DNA of 64,000 nt from the IMG/VR virus record IMGVR_UViG_3300035208_002115. One strand, written 5' to 3'. Source of the stretch: a virus. Lineage: Duplodnaviria > Caudoviricetes. A program made the position numbers and the translations under genes. The notes below the pieces were generated by a model. That model was not told where the DNA came from and made no database searches. It was given only the letters and a program-made list of their open reading frames with translations. How positions within the stretch are numbered: position 1 is the stretch's first letter; the number at the start of each line of letters is the position of its first letter. Shown here one piece after another: positions 5,771-58,036 of this stretch.

Positions 5771-7927
5771 GTGATGATTGAGTTTAACAAACTAATTCAA
5801 GCCCAATTCAACAAGATGTGTGAAACGGGTAAGTTATTTCGTAGTTCGTTGACTGGTCAAGAAGTGTGGGATTTGTATATTAAAAGTTTTCCAAAAGAAC
5901 ACAATCCCATATTCAGAAGTCCAGACAGTTCTTCTCATAACTGTAATCACTGTAATAACTTTATTCGTAGATATGGTAATATCGTTACCATTGATGAAAA
6001 TCTCAATGTTGTTACGATGTTTGATGTTGATGCAGATGAAGAATACAGTGCAGTAGCTAAAGTGGTAGATTCTAAACTAAAATCGGCTACGGTTTCGGGT
6101 GTTTTCTTTGAAACTTTCAGCGAGCTAAATTCTTTACCTTATGAGAAATGTTCTAAAACAAATGAAATTTTCAGATTGGGTATTGACAAAAACGTAAAGC
6201 AATACACAAAAGAGGAAGCTGAATTGTATAAAAATTCAGATAATTCTTTCATAGTTAAACCTGAAGAAATTAGAACATTTAATCATTTACATCTTAATCT
6301 ACCAAGGGTATTTGTAGATATGGGTGATGATTCAGTTGAAAAAATAATGGCTAATTATCGAGATGCCAAAAATGTTTTTCAAAAGGCTATGCAAGTGATA
6401 CCGCTTGATACACTCAATCTGGTGAAAGACCTTATTAACCAAGGTTCACTGCTGGATGGACAAACTCATTTGTATAAATTACACCAAATCATACCATTAA
6501 AAGAACAATATGATAAATTATCCGATGATAAAAAGGATAATTGGTGTTGGATTAACAGTTATAAACTTCCATTTGCTAAGTTCAAAAATGAATTAATTGG
6601 TACTTTATGCACCGAGTTGGCAGAGGGGGAAGAATTAAACAAAGCATGTCAGTCTTGGAATAAAAGAGTTGACCCAGTTAATTATATGAAAACTGTTGCT
6701 CCGATTACCAAGAAACAAATTGAAGAAGCTAAAAAATTCGTTGAAGAAAATGGTTATGAAGAATCTTTTAATAGAAGATTTGCCACAATTGATGATATTA
6801 AAGCTTCGGAAATTAAACACATCAATGTTGGAGACGGTAAATTAAAAACAGTTTCTATATTCGATAATGTTAAATCGACTTCTACTCGTCACAAAAGAAG
6901 TGAATTTGATAATGTGGAAGAAGTAACTATTGAAAAGTTTATGTCGGAGGTTCTTCCTTCGTGTACTTCAGTTGAAGCGTATTTGTCTAACAAATATGAA
7001 GGTAATCTTGTTTCTTTAACAACAGCTAACAATAAAGAAAGCAAACCTATATTCAAATGGAATAACAATTACAGTTGGACATTCAATGGTAACTTGGCTG
7101 GTAAATCGATGATTAAAGATGCTGTTGAAGCTAAAGGTGGTAAGGTTGATGGTGTATTGCGTTTCTCTATTATGTGGGCAGAAAATGACCCAACAGATAA
7201 TTCCGATTTAGATGCTCATGCACAAGAACCAAATGGTACTCATATTTATTATTCGTCTGATTACAGAAAAGACAGAGGAAATCATAGAACTTCTATGTCT
7301 GGACAGTTGGATATTGATATAACTCAACCTAATAATTTTAGTAATAAAAATATTGTTGAGAATATCGCTTGGACTGATATCAAAAGAATGAAAGATGGTG
7401 TTTACAAATTGTGGATTAACCAATATGCCAGTAGGGGTTCTAAAGGATTCAAAGCTGAAATTGAATTCGGGGGCGAAATTTATTCTTATGAATATAATAA
7501 ACCCGTATCAGGCAATGTACAAGTAGCTGAAGTTACTTTTAATAATGGGGAATTTACCATTAAGCATTTACTACCTGAAATTGCATCATCTAAAGAACTT
7601 TATGGTTTACAAACAAATGAATTTCATAAAGTGAATTTAGTGTGTCTAAGTCCTAATCATTGGGGAGATAATAATGTAGGAAATAAACATTATTTATTCA
7701 TGCTTGATGATTGTAAATGTCCAGTAAATATTCGTAGTTTTCATAATGAAAACTTGATACCAGAATTAGCACAACATCGCAAAGTTCTCGAAGTACTGGG
7801 TAACACTACTATGATTGAACCTGCTAATAAACAATTATCTGGTTTTGGGTTCAATGCTACTGTTCGAGATGAACTTATTGTTAAATTACAAGGGTCATTC
7901 AAACGAGTAATTAAAATAAAATTTTAA
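5771..7927 (+). CDS. Large hypothetical protein with CxxC and a YfaP/DUF2135-like segment
   Basis: 718 aa; HNCNHC; DLDAHAQEPNGTHIYY...GQLDID; TACATTTG upstream. Confidence 0.6.
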   Translation: MMIEFNKLIQAQFNKMCETGKLFRSSLTGQEVWDLYIKSFPKEHNPIFRSPDSSSHNCNHCNNFIRRYGNIVTIDENLNVVTMFDVDADEEYSAVAKVVDSKLKSATVSGVFFETFSELNSLPYEKCSKTNEIFRLGIDKNVKQYTKEEAELYKNSDNSFIVKPEEIRTFNHLHLNLPRVFVDMGDDSVEKIMANYRDAKNVFQKAMQVIPLDTLNLVKDLINQGSLLDGQTHLYKLHQIIPLKEQYDKLSDDKKDNWCWINSYKLPFAKFKNELIGTLCTELAEGEELNKACQSWNKRVDPVNYMKTVAPITKKQIEEAKKFVEENGYEESFNRRFATIDDIKASEIKHINVGDGKLKTVSIFDNVKSTSTRHKRSEFDNVEEVTIEKFMSEVLPSCTSVEAYLSNKYEGNLVSLTTANNKESKPIFKWNNNYSWTFNGNLAGKSMIKDAVEAKGGKVDGVLRFSIMWAENDPTDNSDLDAHAQEPNGTHIYYSSDYRKDRGNHRTSMSGQLDIDITQPNNFSNKNIVENIAWTDIKRMKDGVYKLWINQYASRGSKGFKAEIEFGGEIYSYEYNKPVSGNVQVAEVTFNNGEFTIKHLLPEIASSKELYGLQTNEFHKVNLVCLSPNHWGDNNVGNKHYLFMLDDCKCPVNIRSFHNENLIPELAQHRKVLEVLGNTTMIEPANKQLSGFGFNATVRDELIVKLQGSFKRVIKIKF

Positions 7928-9332: not shown

Positions 9333-9374
9333 TTTTTTAGATGTTTTTAATCTACAATAATCCTCATTTTTATA

Positions 9375-9648
9375 TGTTCACTCACCTAAGACTGTCAACG
9401 GCAGCATGAATATTCGATATGCCTACCTTCAATTTAGCGTGTTCACTCACCCTTTGCTATCAAAATGCAATGTATACCCATGATGTGTCTACCTTCAATT
9501 TAGCGTGTTCACTCACCAGTCTAAAGTTTTATACGAATAAAGGTCTCGATGTGTCTACCTTCAATTTAGCGTGTTCACTCACCAAAAGGATAAGTCGATC
9601 AGCATCCCTACCGATGTGTCTACCTTCAATTTAGCGTGTTCACTCACC
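9375..9648 (-). CRISPR. CRISPR-like array 1: four full 36-bp repeats, one degenerate terminal remnant and four spacers; leader end lies inside ORF 9579-9914
   Basis: + strand repeat GATGTGTCTACCTTCAATTTAGCGTGTTCACTCACC at 9482, 9548 and 9613 (exact) and 9416 (2 mismatches); remnant TGTTCACTCACC ends at 9386; unique spacers of 29, 30, 30 and 29 bp; degeneration toward the left implies minus-strand orientation. Confidence 0.85.
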
Positions 9649-9914
9649 ATACTACTAACTAATTTATTAATATTCAAATCATTAAGATGATATTTTTCTT
9701 CTAAAATTTGATGTATTTTAGAGAAAGAATAATATAAAATGTATTTTTTTAAATCATAATTAAAATAAACAATATTATTTTTCTTACCAATTAAATAATC
9801 AGAATCATTTTCAGAAACATACCATTCTGTATCCTTAATGATATTCCAAAGGAAGTATTTTGGACTTCTGGCTTCCTGAATCTTTTGTATTATATCTAAA
9901 GTATCTTCTTCCAT
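9579..9914 (-). CDS. Small protein whose C-terminus is encoded by repeat 1 and spacer 1 of array 1; paralog of 34398-34808
   Basis: Starts 3 nt after the DnaJ-domain gene; LDIIQKIQEARSPKYFLWNIIK matches LELAQKIIESRSPKYFVYNIIK. Confidence 0.75.
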   Translation of the reverse strand: MEEDTLDIIQKIQEARSPKYFLWNIIKDTEWYVSENDSDYLIGKKNNIVYFNYDLKKYILYYSFSKIHQILEEKYHLNDLNINKLVSSMVSEHAKLKVDTSVGMLIDLSFW

Positions 9915-29924: not shown

Positions 29925-32333
29925 ATGAATAAAGCTGTTTTGGGCATTGGGTATGGGGATGAAGGTAAGGGTATAACAACCGATTACCTCTGTCCCCTTT
30001 CTTTTAATCCAATGGTAGTGAGATTTTCAGGTGGTCAGCAAGCTGGTCATTGTCAAGTAGGTGATACACTTATTACCACAATTAATGGTTTATTTTATAT
30101 TAAAGATTTAGTAGGTGAAAAAACAAATGTTAATTCGTCTTTTGATGTCATTAATATGAATTTAGAATCTGAAAAAACATCCTTATTGTATAAAGAAAAA
30201 AATAAAAAGGTTAATAAAATACTTCTTTCCAATGGTGTCGAATTTGGGTGTACTTCTTCACATAAATATTTCGTATGGAATTCTATTAATATGTCATGTG
30301 AGTGGGTTGAAAGTGTGTATTTGAATAAAAATATACATCAATTTATTTTCCCAAAAAAATATGATAATTATATAGGTAATGATTTATTTGATTTATCTAA
30401 TATTGATAATACAACAGATTTTATTCATAATAAAGTTAAAATTAACATTAAAAAAATAGATATATATGATATATCGGAGTTAATGGGTCTTGTTAATGGT
30501 GATGGTATGTTTACTAAAAAGGGTTTACAAATTATTTTTAATAAAAAACAAAAAGATGTATTAGAAACAGTTGTTAATTCCTTAAAAAACATGGGGATAA
30601 ATTATACAATTAAACCACATAAATGCAAATCTTGTTTAATATTATATATATGGTCTACTGATTTTTTGAATATTCTTTTAAAATTGGGTTGCTTTTTTAA
30701 AAAAGGTGTAGAAAAAAGAACACCCACTTTTGTGTTAAATGGTACAAAAAAAATAATTAAATCATATTTAAGAGGTCTTTTTGATACCGATGGGTGTGTT
30801 AGTTTTCACAAAAAAAAACAAAATATATATGGAAGAATAAAATTTAGTAACACATCTGAAATTTTAATTCGAGAAATGCAACAAATGTTATATTTAATTG
30901 GAATACATTCCCATGTATCAATATATAAAAATAAAAAAAAGAAACGATTAACTGTATTTAATATAGAAATATCTTCTATTGAAGATATTATAAAATTTTC
31001 AGAAAGAATAGGATTTATTTCTAAATATAATAATAATAAATTAGATAAATTAATAGAATTAAAACAAAATAAAAACCCAAACCTTAATGGTGTTGTATTA
31101 AAAGTAAATTCAAATTTCAAAAAAAACTTCCTTAAAATATTAAATAAAAAGGGAAGAAATAATAACAATATTAGAACAAATTTCATTCTAAATAATAAAT
31201 CAAAAATACAAGAAGAATATAATTATCTGATAGAACTTTTAGAAACATATAATTTAATAAATATTAAAGAAATAGTATTAAATGACAGAATTGAAAATGT
31301 CTACGATATAACAATGCCAAACACACATAGTTATATTTCAAATGGTACTATATCCCACAACACCGTTATTTTAAATGATATCAGACACGTATTTTCAAAT
31401 TTTGGTTCTGGTACATTACGTGAAATCCCAAGTTATTGGGCGAAATACTGCACCGTTGACCCAGTTGGTCTAATAAATGAATTAGATATTTTAATTGAAA
31501 AAGGTGTTCAGCCTTTATTATACATTGATGAAAGGTGTCCTATAACAACACCATTTGATATATTTTATAATCATGAATCCGAAAAAACCAATAATCATGG
31601 TAGCGTTGGGGTTGGTGTTGGTGCTACAATAAATAGAGAAGAAAAATTTTATTCTTTACAATTTGGTGATTTATTTTATGAACCAGTGATGAGAATAAAA
31701 TTAAATGAAATAAAAAAATTCTATAATTTAAATTTTGAAATTAATTTAGATAGATTTTTTCAAAGTATAGAAAGAATCATATCTTCTAAAAATATAAAAC
31801 CTGTGTATGATTTTCCATTTAGTGAAAATTATATTTTTGAAGGTTCTCAGGGATTATTATTAGACCCAAATATTGGGTTTTTCCCTCATGTCACAAGAAG
31901 TTATGTTAGTACTAAAAATATAATAGATGCTGGATTTAAACCTGAATTATATTTAGTTACAAGAGCTTATCAAACCAGACATGGTAATGGGGCTATGATT
32001 GGTGAAAACATTCCACATAATATTTTAGTGAACCCAAATGAAACTAATGTGATGCACCCACACCAAGGTGAATTTAGACGGGCATTACTTAATTTAGATT
32101 TATTAACATATAGTGTTAATAAAGACCCGTATATTCGTTTTTGTTTGAACAAAACTCTTGTAATAACATGTCTTGACCATATTGTAAATGATTATAGATT
32201 TACTTATAAGAATGAAATAATAACATCCTCAAATGAAAATAGTTTCATTCAAAAAGTAAGCAAAATATTAGATATAAAGAATGTTTTAATTAGTAAATCA
32301 GATGAATCGAAAAATATAATAAAATGGAACTAA
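29925..32333 (+). CDS. purA: Adenylosuccinate synthetase-like protein containing an intein
   Basis: GDEGKG, RFSGGQQAGH|TV, FGSG, HGSVGVG, FEGSQG.LLD, FPHVTRS, TRHGNG. Confidence 0.85.
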   Translation: MNKAVLGIGYGDEGKGITTDYLCPLSFNPMVVRFSGGQQAGHCQVGDTLITTINGLFYIKDLVGEKTNVNSSFDVINMNLESEKTSLLYKEKNKKVNKILLSNGVEFGCTSSHKYFVWNSINMSCEWVESVYLNKNIHQFIFPKKYDNYIGNDLFDLSNIDNTTDFIHNKVKINIKKIDIYDISELMGLVNGDGMFTKKGLQIIFNKKQKDVLETVVNSLKNMGINYTIKPHKCKSCLILYIWSTDFLNILLKLGCFFKKGVEKRTPTFVLNGTKKIIKSYLRGLFDTDGCVSFHKKKQNIYGRIKFSNTSEILIREMQQMLYLIGIHSHVSIYKNKKKKRLTVFNIEISSIEDIIKFSERIGFISKYNNNKLDKLIELKQNKNPNLNGVVLKVNSNFKKNFLKILNKKGRNNNNIRTNFILNNKSKIQEEYNYLIELLETYNLINIKEIVLNDRIENVYDITMPNTHSYISNGTISHNTVILNDIRHVFSNFGSGTLREIPSYWAKYCTVDPVGLINELDILIEKGVQPLLYIDERCPITTPFDIFYNHESEKTNNHGSVGVGVGATINREEKFYSLQFGDLFYEPVMRIKLNEIKKFYNLNFEINLDRFFQSIERIISSKNIKPVYDFPFSENYIFEGSQGLLLDPNIGFFPHVTRSYVSTKNIIDAGFKPELYLVTRAYQTRHGNGAMIGENIPHNILVNPNETNVMHPHQGEFRRALLNLDLLTYSVNKDPYIRFCLNKTLVITCLDHIVNDYRFTYKNEIITSSNENSFIQKVSKILDIKNVLISKSDESKNIIKWN
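30051..31361 (+). mobile_element. Intein with LAGLIDADG homing endonuclease (437 aa)
   Basis: Starts CQVGDTLI, block B TSSH, LMGLVNGDG and YLRGLFDTDG, block F VYDITM, ends ISHN followed by Thr; removal restores QAGH-TV. Confidence 0.93.
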
Positions 32334-34397: not shown

Positions 34398-34808
34398 ATG
34401 GATAATTTAGAACTTGCACAAAAAATAATTGAGAGTAGAAGTCCTAAGTATTTCGTTTACAATATTATAAAAAAGTCTGATGTTATACCGTCTCCCAGAA
34501 GTAAGAGTAAGTTTAATTATTATATCTTTGATGATGAAATCATGCTTAAAATGGGACGGTTAAAAGATGAACATAACCCAGAATTATTTTGGGTTGAAAT
34601 TCAAAAAACATTATTTATTGATTTAGAGGTTAAATTTAAATTAACTATTGAACAAAGTAAAGATATAATACGTACTGTTGTTAGTGATTATTTTAATATA
34701 ACAAGGGATGAGATTCAATTTTCAGAACATACATTTATTGATAATATCTCGACAACATTAATGAAAAAATATGTCGCTGAAAAATATAAATCGATGAAAA
34801 ATGGCTAA
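34398..34808 (+). CDS. Paralog of the array-1-fused protein, without its own array
   Basis: QKIIESRSPKYFVYNIIK and LEVKFKL...IIRTVVSDYFNI align with ORF 9579-9914. Confidence 0.65.
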   Translation: MDNLELAQKIIESRSPKYFVYNIIKKSDVIPSPRSKSKFNYYIFDDEIMLKMGRLKDEHNPELFWVEIQKTLFIDLEVKFKLTIEQSKDIIRTVVSDYFNITRDEIQFSEHTFIDNISTTLMKKYVAEKYKSMKNG

Positions 34809-35799
34809 AGTTTTTATAATTGGAAATAGCACATTTGGGTATAAAGAATTGTTCGACTTAAATAAATCATTAGACGAATCGGGTAAATATTATTTTGATT
34901 ATCTCATACCATTTATAAAAAAATATAAAAAAGAAAATGATTGCCTGATTCATCTTGGTAATGTGTTCAATAGAAATGAAAATATTAATGTAAAAACTAT
35001 TAATCAGGCCGTTTCAGTATTCGAGAGATTATCAGAATTATTACCAGTTTTCATATTACTATCTAAACATGATACATATGGCACATTAAATGTCCTCACT
35101 GTACTTAAAAATATAAAGAATGTTTATATCGTAGACAAATCAGCTACTTTATATGATAATAAAATACAATTATATGGTTATCATAAAGATATAATTGAAG
35201 AAATTAAAAATAAAAATATTTTTTTAAATCATTTTAATAAGATTTTAGAGCCTGTTGAGAACCTTGAACATTATTCTGAAAGTGAATTTTTATTTGTAAA
35301 TAATGAAATATATGGCCTTAATTTAAATATAGACTTTAAAATAATTTATTCTGGCGTTAAAGATGAAACTAAAGGCAATAATAAATGTATCGAATCCCCA
35401 TACCCATTAAATTTTAATTCCAAAAATAATGGTATTTGGGTGTTAGATGTGGAGTCTGGACAAGAAAAATTCATTCCAAATGGAATTAATTCTAAATTTG
35501 AGATAAAAAATATCACTTCTATTGGTGATTTGAAAATACTAACCGAAGAATATCTTAATAATAATTTTGTAGATTTAAATATAAATTTCGAACTTTCGGA
35601 AAATTTAGAATTTCAAATGAAATTATCACAGTTGAACGTGAAGTCGATTCATTATACTAAACAAGACATCATTGAAGAACAATTTGAAGAAGAAAAAACT
35701 TACGATATATTTGATTTAGATGCTATTATAACTGATAATATTAATTCAGACACAGTGAAAAATGAATTTGATAATGTCAAACGCATTTATAGTAAATAA
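34801..35799 (+). CDS. SbcD/Mre11 (T4 gp47)-like metallophosphoesterase with degenerate metal ligands
   Basis: IIGNSTFG in place of DxH, HLGNVFNR in place of GDxFD, LSKHD in place of GNHD; IESPY, IPN..SKF. Confidence 0.65.
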   Translation: MAKVFIIGNSTFGYKELFDLNKSLDESGKYYFDYLIPFIKKYKKENDCLIHLGNVFNRNENINVKTINQAVSVFERLSELLPVFILLSKHDTYGTLNVLTVLKNIKNVYIVDKSATLYDNKIQLYGYHKDIIEEIKNKNIFLNHFNKILEPVENLEHYSESEFLFVNNEIYGLNLNIDFKIIYSGVKDETKGNNKCIESPYPLNFNSKNNGIWVLDVESGQEKFIPNGINSKFEIKNITSIGDLKILTEEYLNNNFVDLNINFELSENLEFQMKLSQLNVKSIHYTKQDIIEEQFEEEKTYDIFDLDAIITDNINSDTVKNEFDNVKRIYSK

Positions 35800-35810
35800 T
35801 GGACGGAATT

Positions 35811-36109
35811 GTTGGGTATATCTTTCAAATTGTGACTTGGTACACTGAGAAGATAGTTGAGAAGCTTGATTATTCCGTTGGGTATACCTTTCAAATTATG
35901 ACTTGGTACACTATTTATTCGCACTTGAATTATCCTGAGTTAGTTGGGTATACCTTTCAAATTATGACTTGGTACACTAAACCAACTCTTTGGCTTTTGG
36001 TCTTTCCTGTTGGGTATACCTTTCAAATTATGACTTGGTACACTAAATCTGGATTCGTTGTTTTTGTTTACCTGTTGGGTATACCTTTCAAATTATGACT
36101 TGGTACACT
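35811..36109 (-). CRISPR. CRISPR array 2: five 36-bp repeats and four spacers (30, 30, 30, 29 bp)
   Basis: + strand repeat GTTGGGTATACCTTTCAAATTATGACTTGGTACACT at 35877, 35943, 36009 and 36074; copy at 35811 has 2 mismatches (trailer); adjacent to a Cas12f-like gene. Confidence 0.95.
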
Positions 36110-36119
36110 ATACCATAAT

Positions 36120-36315
36120 TTAAATCACTCAATTTAAGGTATTTAGTGAGTGTATTAGTGGAAAAAAAGTATGTAATTTTTAAAATTTTACTTTCAAAAA
36201 TCCAATTTTTGCTTTCCTGACCTCACTATCTGGTTTTAATCCCTGCGCTCACCATACATTTTAGTGAGTGTATATAGCAGTTCATTTACTGGACTTACGT
36301 CCAACCCAATAAACC
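36120..36315 (-). ncRNA. Candidate tracrRNA / leader region
   Basis: Minus-strand UGGAC-GUAA-GUCCA GNRA hairpin (36290-36303), CUCACUA/UGGUGAG hairpin, UUGGGU complementary to the repeat 3' ACCCAA, and AUACCUUAAAUU complementary to repeat AAUUUGAAAGGUAU with a 2-nt bulge; boundaries approximate. Confidence 0.55.
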
Positions 36316-36326
36316 TCAATATTATT

Positions 36327-37589
36327 TCAAAGAACTTCTTCTAAAACCTTTTCGGTTTTATTTAAGTAATATTTTCCTTTGCTTGCATCATCTAAATAAT
36401 CAACAGATGTAGCTATATTCATTGCAGCATTATAATCGCTATCAATTACTTTATTAAAATCATCACATTTCGAACTTAAACACTTAAATTCAGCACCATT
36501 TCTTTCACCAATAGAACCACAACAAGAGCATATCTGACTTGTATGATAAGGGTCAATATATTTGATAATAATACCACGTTTAATTGCTTTCTGTTCGATT
36601 AAATTCATCAAAGTCATAACACCCCAATATCTTCCAAGATAAGAATTTTGTTCTTTCATAGAATTCTTATCAAGACGTTCCATGTTTATCTGTTGAACTT
36701 TTAATTTTGCAGCAGATTCAATTACTTCTTTTGATAATTTATCCAGTACATTATCAGTAAATGATGTTTCAGAATCTTTTACTTTATTATAAACCTGCAT
36801 TTTTCTTGTTCTACCATGACCTGATTTAGCTAATACAGAAGATTCCTGTACCCTTTTATTTTTCATAGCAATACCATACTTCTGTTGAACTAATTTCTCA
36901 CTATGAATAGACTTCTGATAACTTGGTATGTCATTTATTCTTAAAGAAATAAATCTTCTCACACCCATATCAATACCCATCACTCTATTATCTATGCCAA
37001 CATAACCTTGGATGTCTTGTTCATAGGATAGAATTAACATCAGTTCTTTTCTATTGGTATATTTAATAAGAAAAGTTGAGTTAAGATTGTATTTTTTATT
37101 TTCTAAATCCAAAAATCTATTTAACATAGTTTTAAGATGTCCTGTTTTTTTGTCGAATATTATTTTAAATTTGATATTTGTTCTACTGTTAATAAGAATA
37201 AAAAAATCACCATTTTCTTTTATTAATTTTGGATTAGAATTTTTCAAAAATTGAAAACGTGTAGCACCATATTTCTTATACAGTCTTGGACTTCTTTTAC
37301 CTGATAATAAACCAGCTTTAACATCACTTTTATAATTGTTTTCTGCTTGATATACCCAATCTCTCAGATAAGTAGTAATAACTTTAGGAAATTCCTGAGT
37401 AGTTAAATTATATACTTGTGATTTGGGTGGTGTAACAGGTGACATTATTACTGGATATTGATGTAACATCCGTGATATATCATAAGCCCGATTCAGAATC
37501 TTATAAGATACATTAAAAATATCAAATATCCAGTTCTTGGATATTACATCCACTGGTATTATTTTTATTTTCATTGATGATGTTACCAT
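36327..37589 (-). CDS. cas12f: Cas12f (type V-F, Cas14/TnpB-derived) RNA-guided nuclease, about 420 aa
   Basis: RuvC-I VMGIDMG, GHGRTRK, RuvC-II INMERL, DPYHTSQICSCCG...FKC...C zinc finger, RuvC-III DSDYNAAMNIA; likely start MVTSS at 37589; next to array 2. Confidence 0.85.
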   Translation of the reverse strand: MVTSSMKIKIIPVDVISKNWIFDIFNVSYKILNRAYDISRMLHQYPVIMSPVTPPKSQVYNLTTQEFPKVITTYLRDWVYQAENNYKSDVKAGLLSGKRSPRLYKKYGATRFQFLKNSNPKLIKENGDFFILINSRTNIKFKIIFDKKTGHLKTMLNRFLDLENKKYNLNSTFLIKYTNRKELMLILSYEQDIQGYVGIDNRVMGIDMGVRRFISLRINDIPSYQKSIHSEKLVQQKYGIAMKNKRVQESSVLAKSGHGRTRKMQVYNKVKDSETSFTDNVLDKLSKEVIESAAKLKVQQINMERLDKNSMKEQNSYLGRYWGVMTLMNLIEQKAIKRGIIIKYIDPYHTSQICSCCGSIGERNGAEFKCLSSKCDDFNKVIDSDYNAAMNIATSVDYLDDASKGKYYLNKTEKVLEEVL

Positions 37590-37862
37590 AATTAATTTTT
37601 TGTAAAGTAAAACATATTTTCTGAATAAAAAAATATTATTATAAAAAATACTAAGATTTAATAACAATATCCGTATACAATGTCTATATCGGAATAGAAG
37701 GAAATACCCCCTTTATAACATTAGTCACCTCATCAAAGAATTTATTATTTTAAAGATGTGTAATATTAGATAATTATGTATATTTTTGCAAATGATGAAA
37801 ATGACAGAAGTGTTTTACGAAAAAACTGAGACAAACTAAAATAAAAACCTTTTTGGAAAATA

Positions 37863-38581
37863 ATGGTAATACAAAAACTAAATAAGGTAATATTGGACTC
37901 TAAAACTGTCATTATTAGAGAAAATATGGCTATTTTTATAAAAAATGAAATAGATAATAAATATATTAAAATAGTTAACGGGTTTTTATATATGCTTTAT
38001 AAAGTAAATGGTAAGCATTTATTAAATCGGAAAATTTTTATTAGAATTTCAGATAATATATTTGAGACTTGTTTAGAAGCTGATTTTGTTAATAAATTTG
38101 ATATAACATTCGAAAATTTTCATATAATAAATAATTGCTTATATTTAGTTGAGAATACATCCGATAAATTAAAAATAAATAAATTAATTCGAAAAGAAAA
38201 AATAAAAGAAATATTGGAAGTATGAGTATAATTACACATAAAATACAAGCTAAACCACAGGAAAACGGATTGTATGGTATGCCACTTACAATATTATCAT
38301 ATAAAATTACATATCCTAACTGGGAACAGGAATTTTTAATATCGGCATCAATAATGACTTTAACAGAAATTCACCCAGATAATAAATATGGTATTGAAGT
38401 GTGGTCTAAAAACATTATTCTAATTTACAATTACTCTGAAAAAAAAAGAAGTTCAATACTTTTAGATTATGCATATTTTAATGAAGGTGTATTTTATTAT
38501 GCTAATAAACAAAATCAAAGCGAAGTAATAGAATTAACTCAAATAAAACGTATACATAAAATTGAATCTATTTTAGAATAG
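37863..38581 (+). other. Two small CDSs with C-terminal tag (37863-38225, 38222-38581)
   Basis: End IRKEKIKEILEV and KRIHKIESILE; TATTTTTG upstream. Confidence 0.6.
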
Positions 38582-55708: not shown

Positions 55709-58036
55709 ATGATAAATATTTTAATAGTGGATGATATTAATTCCAATCGAAAAGATTTAAAAGAACGTCTGAGGAATCTAAATTTTGAAGTTAATTTTTT
55801 TGAGTCGGTAAATGATAAATCAACATTTGATATTTTGAGTAGTAATATTATAGATATTATATTATTAGACATCGTTTTAAATAATGAATCTGGAATTGAC
55901 ATATGTAAGAAAATAAGAGGTGATAAAAGAACAGAAAATATTATAGTCATCATGATTACTGCTTACGGTGAAATCACAGATTTAAAAGAACAAGTATTAG
56001 AAGCTGGTGCAGATTCATATATCACAAGACCATTTGACACATTTGAATTAGTGTCCAGAATAAATATAGCGATTCGTTTAAAGAAGGCCGAAGATTCTTT
56101 ACGTACTGAAAAGAAAATGTTAGAATATGGTTTATCGTTGAGTGAGAAGAAATATAAAGATTTATTTTCAACAATGACCAGTGCATTTTCATTAAATGAA
56201 GTGATATATAATGAACAAGGAGAAATTTATGATTATAGGTTTATTGAAGTAAATAACGCCTTTGAAAAAGCTACTGGTTTAAAAGCTACTGATATAATTG
56301 GAAAGTTAGCATCTGAAATATATCCAGTATTTTATAAAAGTTGGTTAAACTTATATTTTGATGTCATTAAAGAAAAGAAGACCAAAAGTGTTGTTGAATA
56401 TATTCAGAATGCTAATAGATGGGTTGAAATTTTTATCTATGCACAATCTAAAAAATTCTTTATATCCGTTTTTAATGATGTCACCGAGATAGTAGAAAAT
56501 AATAAAAAAATAAATAAAATACATAAGGAATTAGACCAAATATTAAATGCATCTTCTCCACTTTGCGTTGTGAACAAAGAATGTAAATTAATTTTAGTTA
56601 ATGATTCTTTTTGTTCTATGTTCAAAGTCGATAGGGATGTAGTTTTGGGTAATTTTTGTCAAAATGTGTTAAACCCAAACACTTGTAAAATATGTCCAAT
56701 TAAGAGAATAATGGGAGGCACAAAAAAATCAATTTTTGAAATTAACACTAAAGTTGGTAAAAGTAAATTATTGCGTTGTTTAGTAACAGCTAAACCTTAT
56801 GAAAATGACCAAAATAAAATAATAGGAATGGTGTCAACCTTTACAGATATAACACGGTTAAAAAAAATTGAAAAAAAACTTATAAAAGCTAAAGACCAAG
56901 CTGAAGAATCTGACAGATTAAAATCTGCTTTTTTAGCTAATATGTCCCACGAAATAAGAACACCTATGAACTCAATCATTGGGTTCTCAGATTTATTAAA
57001 TGAAGATTATATTGAAAAAAGTATTAAAGAAAATTATTTAAATATAATTCAAAACGCTGGGAATGATTTATTAAAACTAATAGATGATATTATAGATATT
57101 GCTAAAATTGAAGCTGGTCAAATACAATTAAAAGCTGAAAATTTTTCATTGAAGAAAATGGTATCAGAATTATATATTTTATATAAAAGAAATCCTAATT
57201 TAATGGCAAACAATGTTACATTGAGTCTTATAGAATATGATTTTAATTGTGATAATATTTTTGCAGACGAATTACGATTGAAACAGATAATAATTAATCT
57301 ATTAAATAACGCTATTAAATTTACTCACGAGGGTGAGATAACTTTCGGTTATTATTTAGATGGTGCTTTTATTCAATTTTTTGTAAAAGATTCTGGTATA
57401 GGGTTAACAAAAGAGCAAATAAAGATTGTATGGGAAAGATTTCGTCAAGCCGATAACTCAACTACTAAAAAATATGGTGGTGCAGGTCTTGGGTTGTCCA
57501 TATCAGATGGTATAGTTAAGTTATTTGGTGGTAAAATATGGGCTGAATCAGAATTATGTAAAGGAACGACCTTTTATTTCACCATTCCATATATACAATC
57601 TAATAAAAACTTAATTAATTTGGAAGAACTTCCCACAAAAGTAACTTATAACTGGGAGAAAAAAACTATATTAATAGCAGAAGATGTCGATTTAAATTAT
57701 CAATTAATAGAAAAACTTCTTGATGATACTAATGTGGACATAATAAGAGCTAAAAATGGAATCGAAGCAATTAAATTATATAAACAACATAAAAATATTA
57801 TAGATGTTATATTAATGGATATACAAATGCCAGATATGAATGGGTATGATGCTACTAAAAAAATTAAAAAAATAAACAAAGATGTTCCAATAATTGCTCA
57901 AACAGCTTATGTTATGAACGATGAAATTAAAAAATGTTATGAAGTGGGATGTTCAGATATTATAAAAAAACCCATTATTAAAAGAAATATGGTTGAAACT
58001 ATTAATAAATTTATTAATATTAGAAAAAATAATTAG
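55709..58036 (+). CDS. Hybrid sensor histidine kinase (REC-PAS-PAS-HisKA-HATPase-REC)
   Basis: ILIVDD...LLD, MSHEIRTPMN, NLLNNAIKFT, DSGIG, GAGLGLSI, IAED...LMDIQMP. Confidence 0.95.
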   Translation: MINILIVDDINSNRKDLKERLRNLNFEVNFFESVNDKSTFDILSSNIIDIILLDIVLNNESGIDICKKIRGDKRTENIIVIMITAYGEITDLKEQVLEAGADSYITRPFDTFELVSRINIAIRLKKAEDSLRTEKKMLEYGLSLSEKKYKDLFSTMTSAFSLNEVIYNEQGEIYDYRFIEVNNAFEKATGLKATDIIGKLASEIYPVFYKSWLNLYFDVIKEKKTKSVVEYIQNANRWVEIFIYAQSKKFFISVFNDVTEIVENNKKINKIHKELDQILNASSPLCVVNKECKLILVNDSFCSMFKVDRDVVLGNFCQNVLNPNTCKICPIKRIMGGTKKSIFEINTKVGKSKLLRCLVTAKPYENDQNKIIGMVSTFTDITRLKKIEKKLIKAKDQAEESDRLKSAFLANMSHEIRTPMNSIIGFSDLLNEDYIEKSIKENYLNIIQNAGNDLLKLIDDIIDIAKIEAGQIQLKAENFSLKKMVSELYILYKRNPNLMANNVTLSLIEYDFNCDNIFADELRLKQIIINLLNNAIKFTHEGEITFGYYLDGAFIQFFVKDSGIGLTKEQIKIVWERFRQADNSTTKKYGGAGLGLSISDGIVKLFGGKIWAESELCKGTTFYFTIPYIQSNKNLINLEELPTKVTYNWEKKTILIAEDVDLNYQLIEKLLDDTNVDIIRAKNGIEAIKLYKQHKNIIDVILMDIQMPDMNGYDATKKIKKINKDVPIIAQTAYVMNDEIKKCYEVGCSDIIKKPIIKRNMVETINKFINIRKNN

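Follow-up and report, generated by a model that had tools for sequence, protein, structure and literature searches.

A mobile type V-F1/V-U3 Cas12f cassette with its own tracrRNA in the genome of a probably Bacteroidota-infecting megaphage

The 64,000-nucleotide stretch of DNA analysed here (the window) carries a real and probably functional type V-F1/V-U3 Cas12f system, for which DNA cleavage is predicted from the sequence. It belongs to an IMG/VR record of 675,678 bp with a GC content of 27% and 40 tRNAs (tRNA calling and base composition). The locus is best explained as a mobile V-F1 interference cassette with a host-filled array, used in conflict between genetic elements, and this explanation as a whole is considered likely. 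The class of system, and very probably also this genome, have already been published. Type V-F/V-U systems that lack adaptation genes have been known from huge phages since 2020 (Al-Shayeb 2020, PMC7162821). A landfill megaphage of 678,337 bp, SO_2017_megaphage_1, is listed as CRISPR-encoding (‘II-B, unknown, 10 spacers’) in a study that places the largest genomes among the Mahaphages, predicts Bacteroidota infection, and reports no viral targets for their arrays (George 2025, PMC12607003); the identical Cas12f protein is also present on a 678,337-bp contig. Neither PMC7162821 nor PMC12607003, in the available portions of the text, describes the locus, the tracrRNA, the mobility of the cassette, or the repeat family. 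The known picture of type V systems in huge phages is unchanged by this locus; what is added beyond an earlier, sequence-only reading of the same DNA is the tracrRNA, the mobility of the cassette, and two further arrays in the genome. The features of the locus are as follows, in window coordinates and in the direction of transcription.

35803..37857, no strand assigned: whole inserted segment, between a 332-aa gene (34801-35799) and a 120-aa gene (37863-38225)
37590..37644, minus: upstream 55 bp common to the ortholog cassette (blastn); probable promoter and RBS, and outer limit of the shared module
36327..37589, minus: cas12f gene, 420 aa, V-U3/V-F1 (Cn/As/Rh/Os/Al3Cas12f) type (PADLOC, PDB match, AlphaFold/Foldseek)
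36969-36971, 36678-36680, and 36435-36437, minus: codons of the RuvC triad D207, E304, and D385, invariant in homologs
C354/C357/C370/C375 of the same protein, minus: zinc finger of Cas12f, invariant in homologs
36325..36335, minus: putative boxA-like antitermination motif, overlapping the last two cas12f codons and the stop
36259..36324, minus: 5' extension of the non-coding RNA, with two extra hairpins and a duplicate of the CACTCAC motif (fold)
36133..36258, minus: tracrRNA core, with a weak 4-bp stem 1 and a stem 2 of GTGAGG/CACTCAC around an AT-rich hairpin (covariance model)
36121..36143, minus: anti-repeat, pairing over ~19 bp with the repeat with one 2-nt bulge, and ending ~11 nt before the first repeat
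35811..36109, minus: CRISPR array of five 36-nt repeats and four spacers (29, 30, 30, and 30 nt from the leader side)
35811-35846, minus: terminal degenerate repeat, gene-distal, with 2 mismatches

Two related megaphages, with a median protein identity of ~80% to this phage, provide the comparison: G001, a landfill phage of 421,673 bp that carries an ortholog of the cassette, and G002, a complete phage of 640 kb. The genome holds several other genes of note. For example, ARAGORN calls a tRNA with the anticodon TTA (an ochre suppressor) at genome 37754-37827 (minus), and the coding density gives no sign of recoding. A phage-encoded hybrid PAS histidine kinase with response-regulator domains lies at 55709-58036 (plus) of the window, and an adenylosuccinate-synthetase-like ORF of 802 aa at 29925-32333 (plus) appears, as read from the sequence, to be interrupted by a LAGLIDADG intein.

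The nuclease, earlier described as a RuvC protein of ~420 aa, is indeed 420 aa long from its ATG. A TTG start further upstream would give 446 aa; the ATG is favoured because homology with the ortholog stops ~55 bp above it. The RuvC motifs GIDMG (D207), NMERL (E304), and DSDYNAA (D385), the GHGRxxK motif, and the zinc finger are all present as first noticed, and none of the three catalytic residues and four cysteines varies across 12 homologs. Of the PADLOC profiles, Cas12u3 scores highest (216 bits), followed by Cas12f (204 bits), and the nearest solved sequences are CnCas12f1 (PDB 8HR5, E 2.7e-34) followed by RhCas12f and Al3Cas12f. In a Foldseek search with the AlphaFold model (pLDDT 84.7), the top matches are AsCas12f and CnCas12f at a TM of ~0.6, and As, Cn, Sp, and OsCas12f all rank ahead of TnpB. 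The protein thus combines a WED/REC lobe, a RuvC domain, and a zinc finger within the 400-550 aa of the family with a best profile and a fold that are those of Cas12f, and is assigned by its sequence to type V-F1/V-U3 with an intact active site. The hallmarks of dCas12f-sigmaE, namely a C-terminal truncation, an inactive RuvC, and an adjacent rpoE, are not found here.

It is also a divergent miniature nuclease, as had been proposed: the nearest non-sibling shares 41% identity and the characterised enzymes less than 30%. Among 1.84 billion representatives there is one relative at 41%, and the others lie mostly near 30%. In a tree of 79 sequences, built without curated references for Cas12f or IS TnpB, this protein, its ortholog, P0002, and P0009 form a clade (support 0.99) in which every member is linked to an array and a tracrRNA. 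This clade falls inside a larger group, whose printed node support is low (0.35), that includes all the array-linked homologs and dCas12f and holds no TnpB-like protein; the phage's own TnpB falls elsewhere. The latter is an ordinary solo TnpB of 359 aa at genome 25297-26376, with 30% identity over the RuvC region and with neither an array nor a tnpA beside it. The profile search and phylogeny that the sequence-only reading had proposed as checks therefore bear out its choice of Cas12f over an IS-associated TnpB, and the phage origin likewise holds.

The gap of 217 bp between gene and array (36110-36326), already read as structured, folds better than its shuffles (z -3.5, 1/200). In homolog loci, a conserved core lies directly 3' of the gene and consists of a 6-bp stem, a GTGAGG/CACTCAC stem around a variable hairpin, and a segment complementary to the repeat. 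A covariance model of 18 other loci has 96% of its paired cells intact and two-sided changes in 10 of 15 pairs. Built without this locus, the model finds it at 24.6 bits (E 9e-5 in the window) as the sole match in the 676-kb genome, compared with 40.7 bits for the P0002 locus; stem 1 is degenerate here, with 4 bp against the 6 bp of the homolog loci. The duplex of anti-repeat and repeat has an energy of -12.7 kcal/mol (shuffle p 0.01). Across 25 loci, which are not phylogenetically independent and include one (L122) whose mis-picked anti-repeat lowers the signal, cognate pairs average -10.2 kcal/mol against -5.0 for non-cognate pairs, and none of 20,000 permutations was as good. By these sequence measures, a tracrRNA with cognate anti-repeat pairing is present. 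Since the anti-repeat covaries on the minus strand, the crRNA would be read as repeat then spacer on that strand, and the orientation of the five-repeat array along the gene, as first proposed, is confirmed. The use of the array on the plus strand, in the manner of II-C systems via a -10 box encoded in the repeat, was rejected on the same covariation.

The 5' extension (68 nt) shows no difference from the ortholog and a weak partial match to the model (E 0.5), and the duplicated motif in the gap may be a relic of tandem cassettes of tracrRNA plus array. In gut phages, single Cas12f genes were seen surrounded by two or three such cassettes whose repeats differ. An Rfam search of the locus gave nothing meaningful. 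The boxA-like motif matches the boxA of a Legionella CRISPR leader at 10 of 11 positions (PMC7862264), and a similar motif lies near the cas12f stop in 10 of 13 homolog loci. The genome has 10 copies against 2.5 expected; five are ≤1.5 kb upstream of a tRNA, and one of these five opens the array of an IscB locus. This enrichment before tRNA clusters and at the IscB array suggests that the locus may be read as a single antiterminated transcript.

The repeats of the array start at 35811, 35877, 35943, 36009, and 36074, and four of the five are identical. An ORF of 99 aa drawn over the array (35799-36098) was discarded as a by-product of the 66-bp period. The absence of cas1, cas2, and cas4, first noted for the 64 kb, extends to the whole 675,678-bp record, where a profile search with working controls found none of these genes and no Y1 tnpA; Cas9 and Cas13b were likewise not found in the record by tblastn. 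The repeat is identical at 29 of 36 positions to that of a Flavobacterium Cas13b locus, which is oriented alike relative to the gene, at 27-28 of 36 to the arrays of dCas12f-sigmaE in Sphingobacteriaceae, and at 25 of 36 to a II-C repeat of Persicobacter at a cas9-cas1-cas2 locus. A search of GTDB with a pattern derived from this repeat, by which the identities are biased upward, returned nine loci, all in Bacteroidota, with two beside Cas13b and several beside dCas12f-sigmaE. In Sphingobacterium, several dCas12f-sigmaE loci were also seen with full tracrRNA-like scaffolds (42-50 bits) by mini arrays whose repeats are 27/36 identical.

These similarities bear on how the array is filled. In Flavobacterium columnare, a VI-B array without cas1 is filled in trans by the Cas1-Cas2 of a II-C system (PMC8092290). 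As in arrays filled by II-C Cas1-Cas2, the 36-nt repeat here ends in a leader-distal GTTG motif and the spacers are ~30 nt long; an IHF-type leader motif is absent from this array. All four members of the immediate clade have the 36/30 format, and more distant Cas12f loci have other repeat formats with the same scaffold, which pairs across the clade with arrays of 36/30, 28-29/32-33, 30/35-37, and 32-34/33-35. The format is thus inherited within the clade, an integrase is still required, and the phage is without one. The reliance on host adaptation that had been put forward gains indirect support from the 36/30 layout and from a repeat of the VI-B/II-C type found in Bacteroidota, and a host Cas1-Cas2 of type II-C, acting in trans, probably fills the array. 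The variety of array formats on one scaffold suggests that phages adjust their repeats to suit the host integrase at their disposal.

The cassette is minimal, as it had been called; the genome is not, for it also carries a CRISPR-IscB locus and an array fused to a gene. The first, at genome 128709-130872, comprises an IscB of 529 aa (RRXRR, HNH), the boxA-like motif, a 36/30 array, and an omegaRNA-like region; the leader of its array has an exact IHF consensus at +24, and its spacers gave no targets in the own genome and related phage records. The second lies within the window.

9351..9648, minus: second array, of 36-nt repeats; the first repeat lies in frame in the 3' end of the gene 9579-9914

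In this unit (9351-9914, minus), a 111-aa gene has a conserved end, V-S-E-H-x-K-L-K-V-D-T, that is encoded by the first repeat. Gene-fused cassettes of this kind occur in 7 copies in G001 and 11 in G002, and their spacers match, for the most part, the genome that carries them or related megaphages, among them positions 7150 and 45570 of the window. Six of eight targets have a 3' NNRAA motif (nominal p 1e-5 for a motif picked post hoc), and a 5' TTR was not found at them. The array 9351-9648 is taken to be a separate system, probably served by the same host integrase. Several other arrangements were observed in passing. Approximately 870 bp with three small ORFs interrupt the repeat of one gene-fused array (L185 1782-2850 / L189 620-1690), and the gene of a large serine recombinase terminates directly behind the final repeat of the interrupted array, a possible integration into a CRISPR repeat. 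In G002, a Cas9-like gene and a 36/30 array of 11 repeats lie side by side at 285607-288900, with no cas1/cas2, and a short array at 177773 has a repeat of Cas12a-like type.

The gene-fused array raises an alternative in which the nuclease is fed, via its single tracrRNA, by several arrays: its own, the one at 9351-9648, and perhaps the VI-B or dCas12f-sigmaE arrays of the host. The genome, searched with the tracrRNA model and effector profiles, shows no tracrRNA or effector belonging to the second array, whose repeat pairs with the Cas12f anti-repeat at -12.2 kcal/mol against -12.7 for the cognate one; 14 of 16 positions pair in register (-11.6 kcal/mol over 20 nt, shuffle p 0.005). The anti-repeat likewise pairs with repeats of Bacteroidota hosts, at -10 to -15 kcal/mol, and that of the ortholog pairs at -17.3 with the gene-fused repeats of its own genome. 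Such pairing is, however, partly expected from the shared repeat family. Moreover, the complete G002 maintains 11 gene-fused cassettes with neither a Cas12f of this type nor the tracrRNA, and spacers from gene-fused arrays find perfect matches in the genome that carries them, as three do in G001, where Cas12f is intact; a 3' NNRAA mostly accompanies the targets, a 5' TTR does not. Supply by several arrays is hence judged unlikely, and a Cas12f that serves as shared nuclease for its own array, the gene-fused array, and possibly the Cas13b or dCas12f-sigmaE crRNAs of the host is rather improbable. If true, the phage would turn RNA-targeting or regulatory guides of its host into DNA-cutting guides against competitors. 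As a second guide source for Cas12f, the array 9351-9648 is possible but doubtful, and it is not counted in the cassette.

The targets of the system were sought with its spacers, as had been suggested, and no target was obtained. The four spacers had none in IMG/VR by exact 21-22-mers, the newest spacer none in JGI metagenomes by exact 21-24-mers, and one spacer none in 185,579 GTDB genomes, Bacteroidota included, by exact 21-24-mers; exact words of this kind miss mismatched targets. A blastn search of the array against GenBank phages and PLSDB returned only a match to a II-C repeat, and a search of the own genome and five related phage records at up to 6-7 mismatches returned none. The evidence for a target comes from the ortholog, whose spacer 3 matches a tail-fibre-like gene on a 19.6-kb landfill viral contig at 27 of 30 positions, with a 5' flank ending in TTA. 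In 153 trials with shuffled spacers on a single 676-kb genome, no match had ≤4 mismatches. A TTR is present at 6% of positions, and the reading of the PAM comes from one target; this single match (n=1) fits inter-phage conflict and a T-rich PAM, and the weapon is probably aimed at rival phages.

Use against the host chromosome or host transcription, by cutting or repression, is the other direction that the sequence-only reading had allowed besides competing elements. There is a precedent, as such use has been described for some Cas14 proteins of huge phages (PMC7162821); the spacers, at 30-40% GC, slightly exceed the phage genome (27%), and the dCas12f-sigmaE regulators belong to the closest scaffold family. 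Against this, the RuvC domain and zinc finger are full length, no sigma factor is nearby, the one spacer searched had no match in GTDB, and the only target of the ortholog is viral. The part of the claim that concerns competing elements thus keeps the support of one spacer; host targeting is unsupported, and we consider it improbable.

The mobility of the cassette is evident from the related phages. The genes that flank the insertion abut in G002 and are 80 bp apart in G001, and the cassette is absent from this site in both. In G001 it is instead found at another site, with 94% nucleotide identity over 36076-37644 (blastn) and 393 of 420 residues identical; just upstream of cas12f there, a truncated gene-fused cassette that retains half a repeat was observed. 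Since the cassette is absent or differently placed in related phages, the module is mobile between them. It is present in a single copy, no transposase lies in the insertion, and the genome has no Y1_Tnp, with serine recombinases sought by one query; the cassette most likely moves between phages without a transposase, by recombination, as judged from these sequences. A 9-bp direct repeat at the edges of the insert (35794-35802 and 37858-37866) was tried as a target-site duplication and not accepted, for the empty site of G001 shares the left 11 bp beyond it; it may be a mere stop-start overlap of phage genes, because TAATG overlaps are common here.

The two orthologs amount to a natural experiment, in which cassettes 94% identical stand at different sites with the core kept, the repeat and anti-repeat changed together, and all spacers replaced. 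The ortholog repeat is identical at only 23 of 36 positions (about 11-13 of 36 bases changed) and no spacer is held in common, from which the array appears to be live on an evolutionary scale. The ortholog anti-repeat pairs at -19.9 kcal/mol with its own repeat against -10.4 with the repeat of this phage; the reverse test is non-discriminating, at -12.7 with the own repeat and -13.6 with that of the ortholog. It could still be argued that the cassette is decaying or passive, with an intact protein and no interference owing to, for example, a broken stem 1 or spacers without a usable PAM. Stem 1 is degenerate and the duplicated motif is able to mispair, no targets were found for the short array, and dN/dS between the orthologs is 0.47 (47 changes, indicating weak constraint only, with the triad and cysteines unchanged). 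The RNA speaks otherwise: the tracrRNA core and 5' extension have 0 of 126 nt changed, compared with 7 of 57 in the stem-2 insert, 4 of 25 in the anti-repeat, and 11 of 36 in the repeat, and the compensated anti-repeat, the four identical repeats, and the complete turnover of spacers make a decaying cassette very improbable. That the protein is the TnpB of an IS200/IS605- or IS607-type transposon beside an unrelated array is scarcely credible: it passes the broad guided_TnpB cut-off of NCBIfam (117 vs 100), bears the PHROG label ‘transposase’, and sits in an inserted segment edged by the 9-bp repeat, but it scores far below the IS200 (42 vs 425) and IS607 (28 vs 350) TnpB cut-offs, is single-copy without a Y1 transposase, stands apart in the tree, has a tracrRNA and array instead of a single omegaRNA ending at the transposon right end, and shares with homologs at 26-41% identity the order of gene, tracrRNA, and array with a covarying anti-repeat.

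The locus is therefore read as a horizontally exchanged, self-contained V-F1 (V-U3) interference module of a Bacteroidota-infecting megaphage, for which the family, active site, tracrRNA, cognate pairing, lack of adaptation genes, mobility, and spacer turnover are established at the level of sequence. In the proposed mechanism, cas12f, tracrRNA, and array would be expressed as one minus-strand transcript sustained by the boxA-like element. The anti-repeat is computed to pair with the repeat, and host RNases would trim the duplex. Cas12f, which would probably form an asymmetric homodimer as known for the family, would take up the dual guide, recognise a probably T-rich 5' PAM, and cut the dsDNA of co-infecting phages or other mobile elements, the last two steps drawing on family knowledge and one ortholog spacer. 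New spacers would be inserted into the VI-B/II-C-type 36-nt repeat by a host II-C Cas1-Cas2 in trans. Such an integrase sets its own PAM motif regardless of the PAM of Cas12f, and therefore many spacers may be unusable. In practical terms, the locus offers a divergent Cas12f of 420 aa whose tracrRNA and crRNA are defined, so that a PAM assay could be set up directly.

Among known systems, the Cas12f1 enzymes of type V-F1/V-U3 are the closest (CnCas12f1 8HR5, RhCas12f 9NZP, Al3Cas12f 9NZO/9NZR, AsCas12f1 8J1J/7WJU, and OsCas12f 9NZQ; PMC13186708). The likeness covers the size, the fold of WED, REC, RuvC, and zinc finger (TM ~0.6), the D-E-D triad, the tracrRNA between gene and array, and the repeat-first crRNA. 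However, identity in structural alignments is only 20-24%, the REC is short and without the extra helices of Al3Cas12f and CnCas12f, and the system here is phage-borne, with a weak stem 1, a 5' extension of 68 nt, and a VI-B/II-C-type 36/30 array. The V-F/V-U systems of huge phages resemble it in their conserved catalytic residues, their short arrays without Cas1, Cas2, or Cas4, and their proposed use against competing phages (PMC7162821; PMC12607003). The dCas12f-sigmaE systems of Bacteroidota share the scaffold family (45-50 bits in Sphingobacterium loci), the larger clade, and repeats identical at 27-28 of 36 positions (Hoffmann 2026, PMC13472631; PMC10691335). Their protein, in contrast, is 364 aa long, C-terminally truncated, nuclease-dead, and tied to rpoE, whereas the one described here has its full length and an intact site and lacks a sigma factor. 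Likewise, the VI-B system of F. columnare (PMC8092290) has a 36-nt repeat with a leader-distal GTTG end, ~30-nt spacers, no adaptation genes, and transcription from the leader into the array; it differs in that the effector here is a DNA nuclease with a tracrRNA and a predicted 5' PAM, whose array would presumably be filled in trans in the same way.
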